Positions 8,130-46,426 of a stretch of DNA of 64,000 nt are shown piece after piece. The stretch is from Candidatus Multivoradales bacterium (GTDB lineage: Bacteria; Acidobacteriota; Thermoanaerobaculia; Multivoradales; Multivoraceae), in contig CBDCWI010000001.1 in the NCBI GenBank assembly GCA_965223325.1, positions 1,568,001 through 1,632,000 on the forward strand. Reading direction: 5' to 3'. Below the pieces are notes generated by a model. The model was not told the origin of the DNA. It worked only from the letters and a program-made list of their open reading frames with translations, and did not search any database. How positions within the stretch are numbered: the stretch's first letter is position 1; every line of letters starts with the position of its first letter. A program made the position numbers and the translations under genes.

Positions 8130-8137
8130 CTGGGCCG

Positions 8138-8274
8138 CTCATCGAGACCGGCTGAGGGACTAGGCCCTTTGACGCCGGGGCAACCGCCAGAGGCTTCGCG
8201 GCCACTGGAAAGGTGCCAACTCCTACGGGGACTTCGCCCACCGCATGCGGCGAGCGAGGCCACCGGAAGATGAG
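8138..8274 (+). ncRNA. SAM-I (S-box) riboswitch
   Basis: CTCATCGAGA..GCTGAGGGACTAGGCCC..GACGCC..GCAACC...AAGGTGCCAACTCC...GAAGATGAG: P1 CTCATC/GATGAG and conserved core, upstream of metB. Confidence 0.9.
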
Positions 8275-8476
8275 AGCACCGAACGTCCTTCTGGACTGAA
8301 CGCGCTTCTCGAACGGCAGTTCTCCCCCAGAGGTGTTCCCCACCAGGGAATGGCGTTTGGCCGCGACCAACACTTCCTCCCCTTCGGAAACTCGTTGAGC
8401 CTGAATCGGCTTCGGGTCCGGTTGGCCGTCATTCGGGTGGCACGGAGACTCAGGAGCCAGAAACCAGGAGACAACC

Positions 8477-38317: not shown

Positions 38318-38767
38318 GTCGTCCTGGCTCGGAGATGTAGCTCGAAGATGGAAAGAGATTGAGGCCTCGTAAGCCCGCCGACCCTACCTGAAGGGCTTCA
38401 GCTGGAGCCGCCCAACAGGGCTGCCTTGTTTCTTTGGCTCTTTAACCATTTTTCAGAGAAAAACGAGTCAACAAGCTCTACGATTCCTGCGCTCGCGATC
38501 GAGCAGCAAGAACATGAACTAGACTCTGCGCATCCCTTTTCTTGATTTGCCTTGGCTTGTTTGGGTTCGCGTGAACGTTCCCTTTGGCTTCCCGTCGGGG
38601 AGTCGGCCCTTCTCCAGAAGGCCTGAGCCGTTACCTGAACGCCCTATCGCGCCTTAGTCCCTGTGCCCGATCCTTTTTCGGGGCACCCCATCGTTGCAGG
38701 ATCTCGCGTGGGACCGGAAGTCGGAAGTCTTCCGGTGACCGCGGAACCTCAGGAGGGTTTTTGCCCA

Positions 38768-41700
38768 ATGAAACATTCAAGTCTTCGATCGATCCGTTTC
38801 TCCGCCGCGCTTTCTGTCGGAGTCGCGCTCCTCGCCGCTCTCGCCTTGCCGCGCAGCACAGAGGCCGACGATCGCGATCTGCTTCGCAGTCGCAACAGTC
38901 GACCCTACGTCTTCGCGATCATCGACACCTCGTCGTCGATGAACCGTCGACCCATCGGCCCAACGGCAATCGCCAGCATCGACGACCCTCAGTCTCGCCT
39001 GTACCTGGCGAAGTCGGCGCTCTACGAAGTGGTCTCCGATGAAGAGCTTCAGCGCAACGCCATCTTCGGCTGGGCGCACTTCAACTACGAGAACTACTTC
39101 GCCAAACGCAAGCATTTCGTCTACACCCGCACCAGCGATTCGGCCGCGCCAGCCTGGTTCTCCGAGTTGCCCTGGCCGGTCCCGGGCGAACCGCTCTTCT
39201 TTGGCGATCCGGTTTCAATCGACGGCGGCGACGCCAACTACCGCAGTTGTTCGCTGCCCGACAACAACCAGAACGATAGCGATCGCCTGCGGCGTCTCAA
39301 CTACTTCCCGAAGCTGGGTTCAAGCTTCAACCAGCCGATGCAGATGGTTAGCTTCATCAACGGCAACGATTGGCAGATCAACCTCGGCGTTCCAACGTCG
39401 GGAACGATTGGCGCGCCCTCGGCAGACGGCCGGGTGAGTATTCCGGTCACGGTGATCAAAGGCTGCGCTGGAAGCCCCACCCCAGACCGCATCTTCACCG
39501 ACACCCTTGTCGTCGAACCACTCTTTGTCGACGCCGACGGTGACGGCAATCTGATTCCGGGTTTCGAAGCGCCGGGCGCTGGCGGGCCACTGCAGCTGCC
39601 AAGCAGCTTCGTCGCCAACCGTTTCAGCGGCCAGAACTTCGGCCTTGGCGGCCTCGATGATCGCTCTTCGATCAGCGCCTGCTCGTCGACGACCCAGCTT
39701 GATGTAACCGACGCGGCTGGTGTCCTGAGCTCCGATCTCTCCTATCCACGCTACGACGACCCACTCAACCGCGGCAATGCCTTCGCACGTGGCGACCTGA
39801 TCCCGTGGGACTGGGTCAACTACCAGAATCGCTTCGACGCCGACGGCGTCAAGATTCCGCCGCCGCCAGGGTTCGAGCGCACGGCCGCCGAAGAGATTCT
39901 GGCGCGCCTGGCTCCCAACACGGTGGTCGATGGTGAAGCGGTCCTCGACGCGGACGGCAAGAAGATTCCGGACTTCCGCGTCGCGCGCTACTTCGATCAC
40001 GACGCGCCGCTGATCGGGAACTACAAGATGCCGCTCAGATCCCAGTTCGCGAACAATCCACCGATTGCCGCCGGAGGCGGTACCCCGCTGGCCGGCGTGC
40101 TCGAGGACTTCGGCGAGTGGTTCGACGCATGGGAAGCGGTCGCCGAGCTCCCCGCCGCCGATGGCGGTGACCCGAACTACGAATGTCGCCAACGTTTTGT
40201 GATTCTGCTCACCGACGGCCAGGAGAGTTGCGGTGGCGACCCGGCAGCCGCCGCGTCTGCCCTGCTCGGGAAAAAGGTCAAGACCTTTGTCATCGGTTTC
40301 GGTGATGGCCTGACCGGTCGCCTCGACGACATCGCCGATGCAGGTGGCACGGGCTCCCATGACACCAACGGAAACGGTATTCCTGACTGCGCCGAGTACT
40401 TCCCCGAAGACGACGACAACAACGGTGTCGTCGACTGCGTCGAAGAGGGCGCTCCGGTTGCCGAAGACCGCGACGAACTGGTGCGGGTTCTCAAGCGGCT
40501 GGTCGGAGCGACCGGCGAACAGACCGGCGCAGCGACTTTCAGTGCCGGTGGCGTCCCAGCTCAGAACTCGTTCTCACCGTTCTCGGCCTACTTCGGAAAC
40601 TTCTTTCCCATCCAGGGGTCCTCGACCTGGCACGGCCGCGTCAGTCACTTCGTCAGGCCACTCTCCCAAGCCTTCCAGGCAGTCATCGATCCGTTGGCCG
40701 CCGATCGCTGCGAGGAGCGCAATGAACTCTTCTGCCTGGCCTGGGAGGCCAATTCGGTGATGCTCGGGCTCGACTCGGGCAACGATCAGGTACCCAGCCA
40801 GGCCGAGATCGACGCCGGTGACCTCCGCCTCGGTCTTCTCCCCAGCCAGCGCCGAGTCCTCTACACCATCGAGCCGGGTGTGGACGGTCGTGTTGGGCTG
40901 GCATCGCGGATGTTCGAACCTGCGACGGGTGCGGCCCTCCGCCTCGACCTGATCGACGGTCTGGGTTACCCGCTCAACGAGCCAGACGTCGACAGCAAGA
41001 TCGACAACGTAGTTGCCAGAACACTGGTCGAAAAGGCCTCACCGAACAGCTTCGTGGGTTCTCGAATCCTCGGTGACTCTCTGCACGCGCAATCGACTCT
41101 GGTCGGCGGTCCGTCGCGCACGTTGTACCTGCGCGACGAGGTACGAGACGAGGATCGCAGCGACGGGTACAAGGAGTTTTTCGACAAGCACCGCACCCGC
41201 CGCCGGATGCTCTACGTTCCAGCCAACGACGGCCAGATCCACGCCATCGATGCCGGTAACTTCTCAGAGGAACAAGCACCGCCCGACGAACCGCCGTACC
41301 GCACTCCGTTCGACCTCGGTACCGGACAGGAGGTCTTCTCCTACATTCCGCGCTTGATGCTGCCGCACGTGAGGCGACTCACCGAAACCACGGATCATGA
41401 GCTGGGAATCGACGACACGCCCGTGCGCGATGACTTCTTCATCGATCCCCGGCACGACGGCATTCCCACGGTAACCGAGCGCGAGTGGCGCACCGTTCTG
41501 GTGGGAGGCCTTCGCGAAGGCGGCTCGGGCTACTACGCGCTCGATGTCACCCAACCCGACAAGCTCGTTGAATCGAGCGAGAACCCGGACCTGCTGATCC
41601 CGCAGACCACCGCCAGCTACGTGCCGACCTGCATCACCAGCTACAACGAGGCCGACTGCGGCCCCGTCGAGTTCCCGAAGATGCTGTGGGAGTTCCAGGA

Positions 41701-42913
41701 TCTCGATGGCAATGGGGTACCCCGCGATGACGACGCCAACCAGGGCAACGATCTGGGCTTCACCTGGTCAACGCCCAACACCGGCCGTATTCGCGTCAAC
41801 ACCGGCACGGTAGCCGACCCGGTCATCGAGTCGCGCTACGTGGCGATCTTCGGTGGCGGCATGGATCCCCAGGACCCGCGAGTCGGGAACTTCATCTACA
41901 TCGTCGATATCGAAACCGGCAAGGCAATCTACAAACGCCCCGTCCTCGGTGCGGTCCCGAGCGCACCTGCCGCTGTCGACGCCGACCTCGACACCTATAT
42001 CGATACCGTCTACGTCGGAACTCTCGCCGGCTACATGTACAAGATCGATCTCTCCCGCCCGCAGCAGCTGCTCGCCGACGTGGGGGCTCCGATCATCAGC
42101 TCGCCGGCCTGGGATCCCTTCCCGATCTACGACACGACCGGCAAACAGGTCTTCATCCCGCCGGCAGTCGTCTATTCACGAGATCACAACGCCTATCTCT
42201 TGTCGTTTGGCACCGGGGATCGCGAGAACATTTTCGCGCGTGAGGAGCCTGGCATCGAGGGGCGCTACGTGACGCTTCTCGATACCTACACTCGACCGAT
42301 TGTCGGCGTACCCGCCGGCCAGAACGGCCCCGAGCACGACGACAAAGCCACTGACACGATGGTCCCGATCACCAACGAGACCAACCTGGTGTCCTTCAGC
42401 TCGACCGGCGGGGCGTCGTTGTCGCCCGACCTGATCTCAGGGGGCGGCTACGTCATCACTCTGGCCCAGCACGAGCGCCTCATCTCACGACCGTTCGCCC
42501 TTTCGGGGCTCCTGGTCTTCAGCACGTTCATTCCCGACACGACCGGCCCGGCTGGAGACAGCTGTGCGGGCGCCGGGTCGTCGAACGTCTACTCACTCTT
42601 GATCACCAACGGCAACGCGATCTCGGGCACCGACCGCTTTCGCACCGTCGACGGTTTCGTCTCGGCACCCTTCGGGTCACCTTCCAGTCGCCCCACCACC
42701 GACAAAGACCTCGGCGGAGAAGGTGCGGGAACGGCGGCCGAGCGAGCACGCATTGCCGACATACGCTCGACTCTGATGAGCCTGATGCCGGCGACATGTC
42801 GGTTCAACAACCTCAACATCGAGCTGCGGGCGGTGCGTTCGGACACCGGGTTCGAGTACGTTGCTGAGGTTCCGGTGTGCACGCAGGTGCGGAACTGGAA
42901 GGACGTGCTCTAG
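38768..42913 (+). CDS. pilY1: PilY1/PilC-like adhesin: signal peptide, VWA domain, C-terminal PilY1 beta-propeller
   Basis: IIDTSSSM...ILLTDGQESC...TFVIGFG (VWA); YVPANDGQIHAIDA, GQEVFSYIP, WRTVLVGGLREGG, YYALDVT, LGFTWSTP; C-terminal RNWKDVL; AGGAGG RBS. Confidence 0.82.
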   Translation: MKHSSLRSIRFSAALSVGVALLAALALPRSTEADDRDLLRSRNSRPYVFAIIDTSSSMNRRPIGPTAIASIDDPQSRLYLAKSALYEVVSDEELQRNAIFGWAHFNYENYFAKRKHFVYTRTSDSAAPAWFSELPWPVPGEPLFFGDPVSIDGGDANYRSCSLPDNNQNDSDRLRRLNYFPKLGSSFNQPMQMVSFINGNDWQINLGVPTSGTIGAPSADGRVSIPVTVIKGCAGSPTPDRIFTDTLVVEPLFVDADGDGNLIPGFEAPGAGGPLQLPSSFVANRFSGQNFGLGGLDDRSSISACSSTTQLDVTDAAGVLSSDLSYPRYDDPLNRGNAFARGDLIPWDWVNYQNRFDADGVKIPPPPGFERTAAEEILARLAPNTVVDGEAVLDADGKKIPDFRVARYFDHDAPLIGNYKMPLRSQFANNPPIAAGGGTPLAGVLEDFGEWFDAWEAVAELPAADGGDPNYECRQRFVILLTDGQESCGGDPAAAASALLGKKVKTFVIGFGDGLTGRLDDIADAGGTGSHDTNGNGIPDCAEYFPEDDDNNGVVDCVEEGAPVAEDRDELVRVLKRLVGATGEQTGAATFSAGGVPAQNSFSPFSAYFGNFFPIQGSSTWHGRVSHFVRPLSQAFQAVIDPLAADRCEERNELFCLAWEANSVMLGLDSGNDQVPSQAEIDAGDLRLGLLPSQRRVLYTIEPGVDGRVGLASRMFEPATGAALRLDLIDGLGYPLNEPDVDSKIDNVVARTLVEKASPNSFVGSRILGDSLHAQSTLVGGPSRTLYLRDEVRDEDRSDGYKEFFDKHRTRRRMLYVPANDGQIHAIDAGNFSEEQAPPDEPPYRTPFDLGTGQEVFSYIPRLMLPHVRRLTETTDHELGIDDTPVRDDFFIDPRHDGIPTVTEREWRTVLVGGLREGGSGYYALDVTQPDKLVESSENPDLLIPQTTASYVPTCITSYNEADCGPVEFPKMLWEFQDLDGNGVPRDDDANQGNDLGFTWSTPNTGRIRVNTGTVADPVIESRYVAIFGGGMDPQDPRVGNFIYIVDIETGKAIYKRPVLGAVPSAPAAVDADLDTYIDTVYVGTLAGYMYKIDLSRPQQLLADVGAPIISSPAWDPFPIYDTTGKQVFIPPAVVYSRDHNAYLLSFGTGDRENIFAREEPGIEGRYVTLLDTYTRPIVGVPAGQNGPEHDDKATDTMVPITNETNLVSFSSTGGASLSPDLISGGGYVITLAQHERLISRPFALSGLLVFSTFIPDTTGPAGDSCAGAGSSNVYSLLITNGNAISGTDRFRTVDGFVSAPFGSPSSRPTTDKDLGGEGAGTAAERARIADIRSTLMSLMPATCRFNNLNIELRAVRSDTGFEYVAEVPVCTQVRNWKDVL

Positions 42914-42947
42914 AAAACCCATGGTTCATACCATGGGTTTTCTAGAG
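42908..42947. repeat. Perfect 18-bp inverted repeat (REP-like hairpin) containing the pilY1 stop codon
   Basis: ctctagaaaacccatggt-tcat-accatgggttttctagag. Confidence 0.9.
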
Positions 42948-42962
42948 ATCACTCCTGCGGTG

Positions 42963-44872
42963 ATCGCGGTAGGAGCGCCGGTTGCCCGGCGCCCCCCGCA
43001 CAGATCCCAGCGTGCACTGCTAATGCACTGGGCTCCTGCCTCAGGTATTGACGACAAGTCGCTCATCAGGCCAGGGATGTTGGACTCGGGCTTTGGGTAG
43101 GTAGTGGGCCACCAGGGCCCACATCCGTTTCCAGGACGTGCGGTCTTTGTCACTGCGTCGGCGCAGAGCGCGCATCCAGTGCCGAATGACCTCCTGTCGA
43201 AAGGCGTTCAACGCCGCTGAGTTGCCGGGTACGCCGTAGTAGGCATTGAAGCCTCGCACCACGGATCCCAGCCAGAGACCTTGCTCTGGTAGCGGCGAGT
43301 GTCGGTGTCCCAGAAGGGCCGTACCGACAGCCTTCAGTGTCCTGCGGATTCGGTGGCGGCTCGTGATGCGCTTCAGCAAGAACCTCCCTCGACTAGACTG
43401 CGCACAGCAGTGCGTAAAGCCTAGAAACTCGAAGGTCTCCGGCCGCCCGAGACCTCGCGCGCGTCGGTTGTAGGCCGCAAAGCGGCCAAACTCCAGCAGG
43501 CGCGTCTTCTCGGGTTGGATCTCCAACGAGAAGTCACGGAGTCGCAGGTTCAGTTCCTCGAGGAATCGTTCTGCCTCCTCCTGCCTCTCAAATCCAACGA
43601 TGAAGTCATCCGCGTAGCGCACGAAGATCATGTCCCCAAGCGCGTTGCGTTTCCTCCACTGCTGGACCCAGAGATCGAGCACGTAGTGCAGGTACACGTT
43701 CCCGAGGAGAGGCGAAATCGTCGCCCCCTGAGGAGTCCCCCGCGTGCTCGCGTGCCACTTACCGTCTTCCATCACTCCGGACCTCAGCCATTTCTGGATG
43801 AGGCGAAGGATCCTACGGTCTCCGATACGGTGCTCGAGAAACTTCACCAGCCACTCGTGGTCCAGGGCATCGAAGAACCCACGAATGTCTGCGTCGAGCA
43901 CCCAGTTCACCTTCCGCTTTGTGATTCCAACGAATAGCGCATCCAAAGCATCGTGCTGGCTGCGGCCTCGCCTGAATCCGTATGAGTACCCGAGAAAGTC
44001 TTCCTCGTAGATCGCATCCAACACCGAGACGACGGCGCGCTGAAGGATCTTGTCCTCCAACGTGGCGATGCCAAGCGGTCGGAACCGCCCATCCGATTTC
44101 TCGATGTAGACGCGACGAGTCGCACTCGCCCGGTAGCTCCCACGGTGGACACGAGAGTGCAGGTCCTCGAGATTGCTCAGCAAAGATTCTGCGTACTCGC
44201 TCCATGACACTCCGTCCACTCCTGCCGCTGCGTCTCGGTGCAACACGTCAAATGCGCTCCGGAGTCGCTCGACCGTGATGTGGTGAAGAAGCGCTGTGAA
44301 CTTCACTTCCTTGCCCCTGCGGGCGGCTTCTCGTACACGGCCCAGCGCATTGCTCGCACTCTCCATCCGGCTCTGTGTCCGGGGTGCGTTTTGCTTGCCC
44401 GTGTTCCCCTTGGCCAGGCCCCTTCCCTCCACCGCCTCCGCCGCTGGTCTCCCACCGTTGTTCGACGACTTCGCAGGTACTACGGGCCTGTCTGACTTCC
44501 GCCATCCGTGCGTCATCGGCTTACGGCCTCTAGCCTTCCCGATGCGGACCAGATACCCAACTGGCCAGATCGCGGATCTCCCGGTTCTCGCGCATGGAGA
44601 TTCCACACATGCACAGGGTCTACGACCGCGGGGAGTCGCCGCAGAGCTCGCGATAGCGCGCTACGGAGTCTCGCCTTCCGCTTCGCTTGACAGCGTCGGC
44701 ACTCCCAAATTCTTATTTCGCGGCTCAATACCCGGCCTGTGTGTGCCCCTGTCAACGCTTCACCGCTCCCTCGCGGGAGCCGGCGCATGACTCGGGGACC
44801 CTCTGGGTCGCTACCCCTTCGAGGGTGGGACTCTCTCATTCCTTTCTCCATGCCGGTTTATCCCGGCGTATC
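42963..44872 (-). mobile_element. Group II intron (probably bacterial class E-like, no endonuclease domain), 1,910 nt
   Basis: DV/DVI GGAGCCCAGTGCATTAGCAGTGCACGCTGGGATCTGTGCGGGGGGCGCCGGGCAACCGGCGCTCCTACCGCGAT; boundaries fixed by comparison with the uninterrupted repeat site cctgcggtg|caagcggg; EBS1 CAAGCG at 44689-44684. Confidence 0.92.
43041..44516 (-). CDS. ltrA: Group II intron reverse transcriptase/maturase
   Basis: KFTALLHHI, AAGVDG, RPLGI..EDKILQ, YSYGFRRGR, VLDADIRGFFD, GTPQGATISPLL, RYADD, FEFLGF; the start may instead be the ATG at 44366. Confidence 0.95.
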   Translation of the reverse strand: MTHGWRKSDRPVVPAKSSNNGGRPAAEAVEGRGLAKGNTGKQNAPRTQSRMESASNALGRVREAARRGKEVKFTALLHHITVERLRSAFDVLHRDAAAGVDGVSWSEYAESLLSNLEDLHSRVHRGSYRASATRRVYIEKSDGRFRPLGIATLEDKILQRAVVSVLDAIYEEDFLGYSYGFRRGRSQHDALDALFVGITKRKVNWVLDADIRGFFDALDHEWLVKFLEHRIGDRRILRLIQKWLRSGVMEDGKWHASTRGTPQGATISPLLGNVYLHYVLDLWVQQWRKRNALGDMIFVRYADDFIVGFERQEEAERFLEELNLRLRDFSLEIQPEKTRLLEFGRFAAYNRRARGLGRPETFEFLGFTHCCAQSSRGRFLLKRITSRHRIRRTLKAVGTALLGHRHSPLPEQGLWLGSVVRGFNAYYGVPGNSAALNAFRQEVIRHWMRALRRRSDKDRTSWKRMWALVAHYLPKARVQHPWPDERLVVNT

Positions 44873-45273
44873 CAAGCGGGCCATCGCCTGGGCCGCGTGC
44901 GGCAGCGACCGCCCTGCTCATGCGATCGAGAACTGCCACGGATCGGGCGCGCACCGCGGATCCCGGGCTTCGATGAAGCGAGGTGGATGGGCGCGCCCGG
45001 CATCCTTAGCCTGACCGAAACCCATGCTGCATACCATGGGTTTTCTAGAGATCACTCCTGCGGTGCAAGCGGGCCATCGCCTGGGCCGCGTGCGGCAGCG
45101 ACCGCCCTGCTCATGCGATCGAGAACTGCCACGGATCGGGCGCGCACCGCGGATCCCGGGCTTCGATGAAGCGAGGTGGATGGGCGCGCCCGGCATCCTT
45201 AGCCTGACCGAAACCCATGGTGCATACCATGGGTTTCTCAAGATCACTCCTGCGGTGCCAGCGGGCCGTCGCC
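44873..45273. repeat. Tandem array of 193-bp structured units: 2 full units plus partial units, continuing at 42914-42962 across the intron
   Basis: Unit starts at 44873, 45066 and 45258; the two full units differ only in and just after the CCCATGG hairpin. Confidence 0.95.
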
Positions 45274-45292
45274 GTGCTCTCCGATTGAGCGC

Positions 45293-46426
45293 TCAGCCTA
45301 TGGCTGCCTTGAGTAGGTAGGCCACGGCCAGGCCGGCGTAGGTGCCTACTGCGTAGCCCAGGATTCCTACTGCCAGACCTGGTACGACCAGGTCGCGCCA
45401 GCCGCGGCTGCTGGCTAGGGCCATGGCGGTGGGGGGGCCGCCAATGGCTGCTTGTGAGGCCACTGAGAGGGTCTCTACGTCTAGCTTCATCACGCGGCCT
45501 AGTAGGTAGAGCACCAGGCCGTGGATGGCTACGACGGTCAGGGTGAACCACAGGATCGACCAGCCGACGACTCTGATCTCGGAGAGCCTCGACGAGATCC
45601 CGATGACTACGAAGAACAGGTGGAGAGCGATGTAGCCGAGGGCGAAGCCACCGTTCAGGTTTCTCGCCCATGGCAGGAAGCCCACGCACAGTGCCAGCGT
45701 GGTCAGGAACAGGACCTCGGGAACCGCGGGAAAGAGCGAGCCGAGCCAGGAGGCTGCGAGGACTACGGCCAGGCCCACGAGCAACAGGCTGAGAGCGTCC
45801 ATTGGTGACAGCCTGCCGAGCATCATCTCCGACTCGGGCGGTCGTTCGTTCGCGGAGGCTCCCGGTGCTTCGAGCTTTCTTTTTGGATAGTAGGCCGCCA
45901 GCCAGACAGGCAGTACGAGCGACATGCCAACCCACAGGCCAGTGGCTACGTTGTCGGCGGCGGTGGCGGCTGCGAACATGGACGGTGACAACTCGACGGC
46001 TCGCTCGACTGCCACGAAATTGAGGCTTCCACCACTGTAGGTACCGGTCATCACTCCGCCGAGTTTCCAGGTCTCGGCACCGAGCTCCCGGCCGAACGCG
46101 ACGACGGCGACGACCGCACCGACTGCGGTGGCGAAGACCGCCAGGCCAAACGCCTGGAGCATGCGCGGCCCCGTCGCGCGAAGGCGATCCAGCCGCAGCG
46201 ACAACAACAACCATACGATCGCAAGCGACACCAGCGGCCCTGAGATCACTTGATAGACCTTCGACTCGGCGGGTACCAGGCCGGCGTTCGAGAGCAACGC
46301 ACCGAAAACGATCGCCAAGAGCGGAGCACCCAACACGCGCAGACCCGCAAATCGCCCTTCGAGCCAGAACGACAAGGCGACAATGGCGACGATGAGCGCG
46401 AGGAGTGCTGTTGGATGGTCGAGCAT
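45293..46426 (-). CDS. DUF819 family membrane protein
   Basis: TGTYSGGSLNFVAV, AADN, VASQAAIGGPPTA, GYAVGTY. Confidence 0.85.
   Translation of the reverse strand: MLDHPTALLALIVAIVALSFWLEGRFAGLRVLGAPLLAIVFGALLSNAGLVPAESKVYQVISGPLVSLAIVWLLLSLRLDRLRATGPRMLQAFGLAVFATAVGAVVAVVAFGRELGAETWKLGGVMTGTYSGGSLNFVAVERAVELSPSMFAAATAADNVATGLWVGMSLVLPVWLAAYYPKRKLEAPGASANERPPESEMMLGRLSPMDALSLLLVGLAVVLAASWLGSLFPAVPEVLFLTTLALCVGFLPWARNLNGGFALGYIALHLFFVVIGISSRLSEIRVVGWSILWFTLTVVAIHGLVLYLLGRVMKLDVETLSVASQAAIGGPPTAMALASSRGWRDLVVPGLAVGILGYAVGTYAGLAVAYLLKAAIG

Follow-up and report, generated by a model that had tools for sequence, protein, structure and literature searches.

This analysis concerns a 64,000-nt stretch of DNA, called the window below, from Candidatus Multivoradales bacterium (assembly GCA_965223325.1, contig CBDCWI010000001.1, positions 1,568,001 to 1,632,000), in which a group II intron interrupts the first unit of a tandem array of non-coding repeats lying between a PilY1-like gene and a convergent DUF819 gene. 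Judged from sequence comparisons, an active, endonuclease-less intron of IIB-like (IIE/IIF-type) character has very probably retrohomed recently, and many times, into one position of this species-restricted repeat. The intron and its parts are as follows.

42963 to 44872, minus strand: group II intron of 1910 nt, with 5' end GAUACG and 3' end ...CCUACCGCGAU, delimited by comparison with an empty site.
44616 to 44834, minus strand: 5' part of the ribozyme, domains I-IV (RF02005, group-II-D1D4-6, 182.6 bits, E 2.1e-53, model positions 1-225, the full model).
44684 to 44689, minus strand: exon-binding site 1 (EBS1), CAAGCG, in the loop of a domain I (D1) hairpin, complementary to CGCTTG in 14/14 full copies.
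43041 to 44366, minus strand: intron-encoded reverse transcriptase (RT)/maturase, 441 aa from the ATG at 44366, in which no endonuclease domain was found.
43003 to 43035, minus strand: domain V, 33 nt (GAGCCCAG...CUGGGAUC), with an AGC triad, a third pair that is G opposite A and a distal loop that is not a GNRA tetraloop.
42966 to 42999, minus strand: domain VI, the fold of which has a bulged A (42970) at a distance of 7 nt from the 3' splice site.

On the plus strand the sequence across the insert reads ...cctgcggtg^atcgcgg...ggcgtatc^caagcggg (carets mark junctions or insertion points throughout), or in longer context ...CACTCCTGCGGTG^ATCGCGG...GGCGTATC^CAAGCGGG..., and on the minus strand the intron starts with GAUACGCCGGGAUAAACCGG and finishes with CCUACCGCGAU. 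Excision of 42963-44872 restores cctgcggtgcaagcggg, and the same 17-mer stands unbroken at 45057-45073. The insert lacks any target duplication, and the junction bases allow no shift by one base in either direction; re-reading therefore bore out the boundaries that an earlier note on this DNA had given as exact and free of duplication. The longest RT reading frame extends over 43041-44606 (minus strand) from a GTG at 44606. The protein matches RVT_1 (PF00078, 9.2e-39) and TIGR04416 (342 bits, 3.2e-102; the NCBIfam cut-off for group II RT/maturases is 300) and sits inside domain IV, as expected of group II introns. It had been described as devoid of an endonuclease domain, and a domain search gave 0 matches to HNH families at E<=0.01. 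Without its open reading frame (ORF), the ribozyme measures ~585 nt.

The repeat consists of a first hairpin (helix 1), a linker, a second structured part (domain B) and a tail, and R1 denotes its covariance model. The array and its neighbours are arranged as follows.

38663 to 42913, plus strand: upstream gene, PilY1-like with a VWA domain (PF05567, 1e-16; PF00092), with stop codon TAG at 42911-42913.
42911 to 42944, plus strand: helix 1 of unit 1 in its short form, TAGAAAACCCATGG / loop TTCATA / CCATGGGTTTTCTA, 14/14 paired, loop of 6.
42945 to 42962, plus strand: linker of unit 1, GAGATCACTCCTGCGGTG, with which, read on the minus strand, the 3' exon of the intron begins (CACCGCAGG...).
44873 to 45017, plus strand: rest of unit 1, namely the 3' part of domain B and the tail (R1 match 44850-44974, 58.7 bits).
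45018 to 45210, plus strand: intact unit 2, with hairpin 45018-45043 and domain B 45042-45167 (R1 101.7 bits, E 1.7e-25).
45211 to 45273, plus strand: partial unit 3 (weak R1 match 45234-45369, 14.4 bits).
45293 to 46426, minus strand: downstream convergent gene, DUF819 (PF05684, 9.9e-59).

The TAG of the upstream gene forms the first three stem bases of helix 1 of unit 1, and positions 44873-44878 read on the minus strand are the intron-binding site 1 (IBS1), CGCTTG. Two further sites singled out by the earlier note are both present: an empty and perfect one at 45065/45066 in unit 2, and one at 45257/45258 in unit 3 with a single IBS1 mismatch (CGCTGG). Tandem Repeats Finder delimits 44873-45273 with a period of 193, 2.1 copies and 97% matches, and a further 48 nt (42915-42962) match the unit end at 95.8%. 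Read-through from the DUF819 gene would transcribe the array in the intron sense.

The genome (6.69 Mb in two contigs, C1 and C2, with 64% G+C) carries 14 full-length copies of the intron, each 0-2 bases from the window copy (99.9-100% identity), and an additional 239-nt fragment of the intron 3' part, 97% identical, which abuts the 3' half of a repeat unit. In a public sequencing run of the same organism (X3), read depth was 217.7 on the collapsed intron contig and 15.5 on the flank, a ratio of 14.0. The loose ends of the contigs of this run match other copies of the same genome, and no empty or alternative allele was seen in them. The window copy has a private base at 44767, T on the plus strand, where the collapsed contig of the other copies has A. 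At C1:1555086-1555121, away from any full copy, 36 nt match exactly nt 1320-1355 of the intron, within the RT gene. The near-identity of the copies indicates that the spread of the intron is very recent. One fixed position of the repeat holds 14 of the 15 insertions (13/14 full copies and the fragment), which settles whether the copies share the position seen in the window. The flanks of the 13 full copies align on both sides as ...GCAGGGCGG..GCC...GGCCCGC..CGGACCGCTTG^CGCCGCAA.AGTGA..., and because these homologous flanks differ at many positions, the 13 insertions are independent events and not duplications of an occupied unit. The 14th full copy (C2:2351639), which has only GCGCTTG^C in common with them, is located within a 234-codon ORF in sense orientation and looks like an ectopic retrotransposition. 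In arrays of at least three units, the intron occupies an end unit in 7 of 8 cases.

A spread at the DNA level, by duplication of an intron-bearing unit or by its movement along with the repeat, might be envisaged from the multicopy, arrayed nature of the repeat and from the 28 Y1-transposase-like ORFs of the genome. This explanation is highly improbable: the flanks of the 13 occupied units are as diverged as those of empty units of different loci while the introns they hold are 99.9-100% identical, no array carries two introns, and one copy, as well as intron remnants in a genome of the same genus, is located outside any unit.

The repeat family was retrieved with a profile built from 12 restored sites and amounts to 169 pieces in 58 loci (~150 copies), mostly head-to-tail arrays of 2-7 units, with units of ~190-325 nt and array periods of 163-325 bp. 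The repeat thus occurs elsewhere in the genome, and the proposal that the EBS1 of the intron matches a multicopy structured intergenic repeat holds over these 58 loci. The insertion point is spanned by 138 empty units, 108 of which have a perfect CGCTTG^C, and ~11% of the repeat sites are occupied (14/129). Outside the intron copies, CGCTTGC is found 1,797 times: 115 times in repeat units in the right orientation, 177 times in other non-coding DNA and 1,505 times in coding DNA, the split between coding and non-coding being made with a crude gene mask that covers 89% of the genome. Occupancy of the repeat (14 sites occupied and 115 empty) exceeds that of the other non-coding sites (0/177, Fisher p = 3.6e-6) and that of all other CGCTTGC sites (1/1,682, Fisher p = 6e-16), in tests that are not independent of the flanks of the intron, which had served to define the family. 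Since 14 of the 15 insertions lie in a homologous context of ~270 nt, neither EBS1 and the C at +1 alone nor survival in non-coding DNA alone is sufficient. The repeat is the homing site of this intron, and EBS1 with C at +1 cannot explain its choice.

These counts bear directly on the possibility that the intron inserts at any CGCTTG^C and that its excess in the repeat represents survivors, copies elsewhere having been purged by selection. The demonstrable pairing over 7 nt and no more, the copy found in a gene in sense orientation, the location of 1,505 of the 1,682 other sites in coding DNA, and the selection-limited spread favoured as a model for Enterobacteriales group II introns in the relevant part of PMC3522654 would all agree with it. 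We consider it unlikely, as none of the 177 other non-coding sites is occupied against 14 of 129 in the repeat (the comparison at p = 3.6e-6, a count weakened by the crude gene mask) and as the 14 copies differ by at most two bases, leaving little time for purging.

The guide sequence was examined by comparison with 78 loci of relatives with RT identity of 49-67%, which belong to many phyla and were obtained by a scan with one genome per species; 42 distinct 5' regions were aligned for EBS1 and exon-binding site 2 (EBS2). In the window intron the EBS1 hairpin is GCCGA-CGCU-GUCAAGCGA-AGCG-GAAGGC according to the Rfam D1 alignment, and its loop GUCAAGCGA contains CAAGCG (44689-44684), a 6/6 complement of the CGCTTG that ends the 5' exon on the intron strand. 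Across the 42 distinct D1 sequences the EBS1 loop changes in step with its own 5' exon, as in the following relatives.

EBS1 loop TAAGCG: 5' exon end CGCTTA.
EBS1 loop TAACCG: 5' exon end CGGTTA.
EBS1 loop TGTAGGT: 5' exon end ACCTACA.
EBS1 loop CACCGC: 5' exon end GCGGTG.
EBS1 loop CCAGGTG: 5' exon end CACTTGG.

This covariation supports both the EBS1 assignment and a 5' splice site of the relatives located just before GUGCG or GUACG; together with the position of the loop it upholds the 6/6 EBS1/IBS1 pairing that had been proposed at 44689-44684. Compared with the GUGCG or GUACG of most relatives, the 5' end of the window intron has one base more, and non-canonical 5' ends comprise GAUACG, GAAUCG (in the two closest relatives), GUAGCG and GAUAGCG (window 44872-44867, minus strand; L001, L058, L011, L012, L017 and L020). 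Relatives with GAAUCG and GUAGCG therefore define, together with the window intron, a subgroup with non-canonical 5' ends. The position of EBS2 in the lineage is given by Acidobacteriaceae relatives, where the stretch after CGAAAU pairs upstream of IBS1 (AUCCAUGC with GCAUGGAU in L037). The homologous stretch of the window intron, AAGAAUUU, has no complement in any of the 5' exons of the copies, and an unbiased search of the 5' exon from -20 to -7 against intron nt 1-330 retrieved only scattered 5-mers common to several sites. Two such candidates, CGGAC at nt 324 (10/14) and ACGGA at nt 206 (7/14), fall in stems or outside the EBS2 position and were taken as chance. The earlier failure to find an EBS2 is consequently confirmed as regards a partner in the target 5' exons. 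The first base of the 3' exon is C in all 15 insertions, which fits an EBS3 pair.

The RNA traits, judged by eye on the Rfam alignment and on the fold, place the intron in the IIB-like, IIE/IIF-like type and not among IIC-like introns; the features of domains V and VI were likewise read from the fold of the last 78 nt. In our reading of the Rfam alignment, a D1 hairpin carries alpha' in its terminal loop (UAGCG / CGCUA). Domain V keeps its GGAUC among relatives, in which the G opposite A and the non-GNRA loop also recur, and CCUACCGCGA(U/C) of domain VI is conserved among them. The 3' end AU agrees with the AY boundary rule, whereas the 5' end GAUACG departs from GUGYG. With the 6-nt EBS1 and the AGC triad, these IIE/IIF-type traits agree with the earlier note's view that the intron is not of the IIC type, class E and class F both being candidates.

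Each array follows immediately on a gene and shares its strand, so that the intron is antisense to the upstream gene. The upstream genes are unrelated (bamA-like, guaB, argG, recA, TonB-dependent receptors, PilY1-like, kinases, peptidases), and the ORFs of at least 100 codons that abut arrays end with TAG in 45 of 56 cases, against 39% TAG genome-wide by a crude count (p = 2.6e-10). In 40 first units, helix 1 begins with the stop codon, followed by 5-8 variable bases (usually 7) and CGTGG, and in 38 of them the complementarity extends over the full 13-15 nt, the partner being CCACG + N7 + the complement of the stop codon. This partner is located ~80 nt downstream, a conserved stretch forming the loop between the arms, or 5-6 nt downstream in short forms such as that of the window. 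The mean pairing of helix 1 is 97%, its stem is locus-specific (for example in L131, L100, L120 and L133), and changes of the stop type are compensated on the other arm (TGA/TCA three times, TAA/TTA twice).

Helix 1 is followed by TCAC and then by domain B, of ~115 nt, in which GCGGCGC pairs with a GCGCCGC ~80 nt away and an inner hairpin is also present. Both sides of this helix are switched to GCCGCGC/GCGCGGC in 7 of 30 loci and are GCGGUGC/GCACCGC in the window units; the insertion point of the intron splits its 5' strand (GCGGCG^C). RNAalifold on the repeat gave 25 pairs, 17 of them with double changes. Over 30 loci, 91.8% of the domain B cells are paired against 32-53% with the partners slid, and the covariation score is 0.157 against 0.099, with 0 of 500 shuffles attaining 0.157; as the structure was derived from the sequences on which it was scored, these figures favour it. 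On the gene-sense strand of 77 distinct copies, domain B has 248 G-U and 20 A-C oppositions. This G-U excess suggests an RNA that is transcribed together with the upstream gene or in its sense. Helix 1 lacks such a strand bias (6 vs 9) and is nearly all Watson-Crick, a composition equally compatible with arms that arose through DNA-level copying. In a variant of the repeat found in ten loci (e.g. L094, L095, L107, L108, L129, L139, L141, L143 and L148), the TCAC linker is replaced by a CCCCC...GGGGG hairpin and the GGATTC tail is absent; such variant units harbour two of the intron copies (C2:512892 and C2:4367653).

Tentatively, the landing pad may represent a new kind of element, in which a hairpin using the upstream stop codon is joined to a covarying ~115-nt RNA domain and repeated head to tail, and on which a IIB-like intron would have converged to the lifestyle of IIC-attC introns. 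Were this so, the repeat may read out or control translation termination or the mRNA 3' end, its near-perfect arms would suggest that it is built or spread by copying the target into inverted repeats, and a IIB-like intron with an altered 5' end would parasitise, without EBS2, the antisense strand of a structured repeat that follows genes.

This structured target raises the question of a recognition in the manner of IIC introns, where short EBS1 pairing is combined with a DNA stem-loop beside the site and structure rather than sequence is recognised. Such a recognition is possible, if doubtful. EBS2 pairing is absent and the RT lacks an endonuclease domain, domain B has, on the intron strand, an inner hairpin with some covariation at 13-50 nt upstream of the site, and the same idea was raised for IIB/class E fragments beside attC-like hairpins in the part of Sonbol and Siam 2021 (PMC7923331) that deals with them. 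Hairpins on both sides of the site, claimed by the earlier note, do exist in the DNA folds of the window units (z -2.5 and -3.0), in which the 5' exon strand forms a hairpin whose 3' side runs into IBS1 (z -2.5). However, the claim fails for a typical unit, L131, the DNA of which folds over 131 nt no better than shuffles (z +0.14 and +0.22). Moreover, the two well-supported helices are long-range, with arms ~80 nt apart, the many G-U pairs of the inner hairpin are A-C mismatches on the intron strand, EBS1 has 6 nt instead of the 3-4 nt of IIC introns, and one ectopic copy lies in a gene. With long-range helices around the site, a typical site devoid of fold excess and a copy in a gene with just GCGCTTG^C, recognition of DNA structure would appear less probable than the earlier note implied.

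The repeat is confined to this genome in all the collections searched. Rfam searches of the window region and of 15 array loci gave no family for it at E<=1. R1 gave 114 matches in its own genome and 0 in 30 relatives, a same-genus genome included, with 114 first-look candidates scored per genome; a 25-nt pattern, with two mismatches allowed at most, occurred 84 times in its own genome and 0 times in a sample of 400 genomes of the phylum. An exact pattern retrieved 0 stretches in metagenome contigs, and blastn of one unit against plasmids and phages gave nothing. With a looser gapped pattern, 10 stretches were obtained in metagenome contigs, at 29 bits or less and 4 of them at E<=0.01, mostly owing to letters fixed by the pattern; they are coding-like, lack helix 1 and were rejected as chance. 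The repeat is accordingly found only here among ~430 related genomes searched and is species-restricted. A RAYT-type origin (RAYTs being tyrosine transposases associated with REPs, or repetitive extragenic palindromes) was considered, since 28 ORFs of ~175-410 aa match the Y1 transposase family PF01797, many of them clustered at C1 2.126-2.144 Mb and C2 4.455-4.487 Mb near contig ends; this origin was set aside, as a single one of the 28 adjoins an array (C1:1243225-1243485).

The relatives of the intron occupy quite different targets. In 30 related genomes, solely decayed pieces of related introns were detected, in 7 of them, and the same-genus genome has two pieces with their 3' ends kept, followed by unrelated sequence. 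At 50-66% RT identity, related introns are located in short GGTGAAG(C/G)G tandem repeats in a Syntrophobacteraceae metagenome-assembled genome (MAG; L004-L008, L033, L078), in a conserved coding-like site in a Solirubrobacterales MAG, and at the end of another repeated sequence in gammaproteobacterial MAGs (5' exon ...CGGACGCTTA). In the Syntrophobacteraceae MAG, introns are also found head to tail, a 3' end being joined directly to the next 5' end (L005 (4112), L008 (4402)). The CGGAC located upstream of IBS1 recurs in the targets of four relatives. Multicopy targets are common in this group of introns, unlike the repeat described here. The proposal of a whole intron lineage with this specialisation is not supported by these distributions, the repeat being in no other searched genome and the same-genus remnants and relatives in other targets: homing to the repeat is a trait of this intron, not of its lineage.

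In the reading that we prefer, of recent and recurrent retrohoming into one position of the repeat, the intron RNA pairs through its EBS1, CAAGCG, with the CGCTTG of that DNA strand which is antisense to the functional strand of the repeat, and a further feature of the repeat would raise the insertion rate. Candidate determinants would be contacts of the RT or the RNA with the conserved flanks CGGAC (-11 to -7) and GCCGCAA (+2 to +8) or, alternatively, single-stranded DNA that is more readily reached while structured tandem arrays are being replicated. Priming of the cDNA would take place at replication forks, a route described as established for endonuclease-less introns in the pertinent parts of PMC4424553 and PMC5894124. 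With several units per array and a location behind genes, the loss of one unit would be cheap. The 'safe' landing pad of the earlier note stands in this sense, that a single unit of an array is split, and not in the sense of splicing: as the intron is antisense to the repeat, it is not spliced out of the repeat's transcript.

Several points weigh against this reading. To the dependence of the Fisher tests on the way the family was defined and to the crudeness of the coding mask is added the tolerance of occupied units to changes, the window copy being off consensus at -7, -8 and +2 and two occupied variant units diverging from +5 or +6 onward, so that no long fixed sequence is strictly needed. 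With regard to the replication strand, occupied units are co-directional in 8 cases and opposed in 6 against 37 and 71 for empty perfect units, a difference in the expected direction and not significant (p = 0.14); the direction of replication was derived from cumulative GC skew, which puts the origin at about 3.5 Mb and the terminus at about 0.34 Mb of C2. A search of the window region with RF00029, the Rfam model of domains V-VI, was negative at E<=1, a silence that fits the unusual domain V with its G opposite A and its lack of a GNRA tetraloop. Finally, the GAUACG 5' end and the G-A pair of domain V are off consensus, and it is solely the near-identity of the 14 copies that would argue for ribozyme function.

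The GC skew also suggests that the two contigs form one chromosome, with C1 reversed. Elsewhere in the window, a SAM riboswitch (RF00162, 73.2 bits) is located at 8136-8276 on the plus strand.

Compared with known systems, the ribozyme resembles that of class E/F introns (Cl.be.I2, Pe.th.I2), as far as these are covered in the cited sections of Nagy et al. 2013 (PMC3753933). The marks given there for IIE/IIF introns are an alpha' in the terminal loop of DId3, a domain V without tetraloop and a small IIB-like ribozyme. The window intron likewise has a small IIB-like ribozyme (~585 nt without the ORF, against 450-700 nt reported), alpha' in the terminal loop of a D1 hairpin, a non-GNRA domain V, an RT without endonuclease domain and a 6-bp EBS1-IBS1 pairing that sets the 5' splice site. 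According to the same source, EBS2 is dispensable for the splicing of IIE/IIF introns in vitro. Unlike the class E/F introns described there, the window intron has no EBS2-IBS2 pairing to its natural target, and its 5' end is GAUACG (GAAUCG and GUAGCG in its closest relatives) instead of GUGYG.

With IIC and IIC-attC introns, as presented in the parts consulted of Zimmerly and Semper 2015 (PMC4424553) and in PMC7923331, it shares the endonuclease-less RT, the absence of EBS2, a multicopy structured target behind genes and many empty sites, and, with IIC-attC introns, an orientation opposite to the transcription of the neighbouring gene. It differs from IIC introns, on the same accounts, by its 6-nt EBS1, its AGC triad and its RF02005 domains. 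IIC introns use an IBS1 of 3-4 bp and an upstream stem-loop and are located in sense behind terminators, whereas here no stem-loop stands immediately upstream in typical units and the intron is antisense. Unlike IIC and attC targets as depicted there, the target is conserved in sequence over ~270 nt and found in one genome.

Introns located in other mobile DNA provide a further parallel, as reported in the cited portions: RmInt1 in ISRm2011-2 and RmInt2 in ISRm17 (PMC5894124), E.c.I4 in the insertion sequences (IS) IS629 and IS911 (PMC3522654), and the nested introns of Methanosarcina acetivorans, referred to as a 'perpetual homing site' (PMC4424553). As here, one intron faces many copies of its target and occasional ectopic copies occur. 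Occupancy is below saturation in both situations, ~11% here and <40% in E. coli where many sites exist (PMC3522654). Unlike these targets, that of the window is non-coding, structured, tandem and tied to stop codons, and is neither an IS nor an intron. In Pseudomonas putida KT2440, 2 of 9 copies of a group II intron were reported at REPs (Tobes and Pareja 2006, PMC1525189).

The repeat itself recalls REPs and bacterial interspersed mosaic elements (BIMEs) as outlined in the parts used of Di Nocera et al. 2013 (PMC3733652), being palindromic, GC-rich, species-restricted, provided with a TAG-containing end, probably transcribed, and located downstream of coding regions and between convergent genes. 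Unlike the REPs portrayed there, its units measure 190-325 nt with a second conserved domain instead of 20-40 nt and form head-to-tail arrays of up to 7; and whereas REPs have an unpaired GTAG/CGTC tag and a RAYT flanked by repeats, the TAG, here the stop codon of the gene itself, is paired within the stem. The repeat is therefore a candidate for a new 3'-end element, with a paired stop codon and a covarying second domain, in arrays behind recA, guaB, argG and bamA-like genes.

As far as seen, the mechanism of the intron is ordinary retrohoming with a short guide, and multicopy homing has precedents in IS, terminators, attC sites, introns and REPs. What is new is the kind of target, the antisense arrangement in a IIB-like class, the absent EBS2 pairing, the altered 5' end and the target element itself. 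The 14 insertions, the ectopic copy and the 108 empty perfect sites, which differ in flank, array position and replication orientation, constitute a natural data set on guidance beyond pairing. Three target habits are listed in the review section cited (PMC4424553), namely long sequence-specific homing sites, terminator stem-loops and attC sites; the present case falls between them, as the intron relies on EBS1 and the C at +1 only, yet is nearly confined, in antisense, to one structured non-coding repeat.

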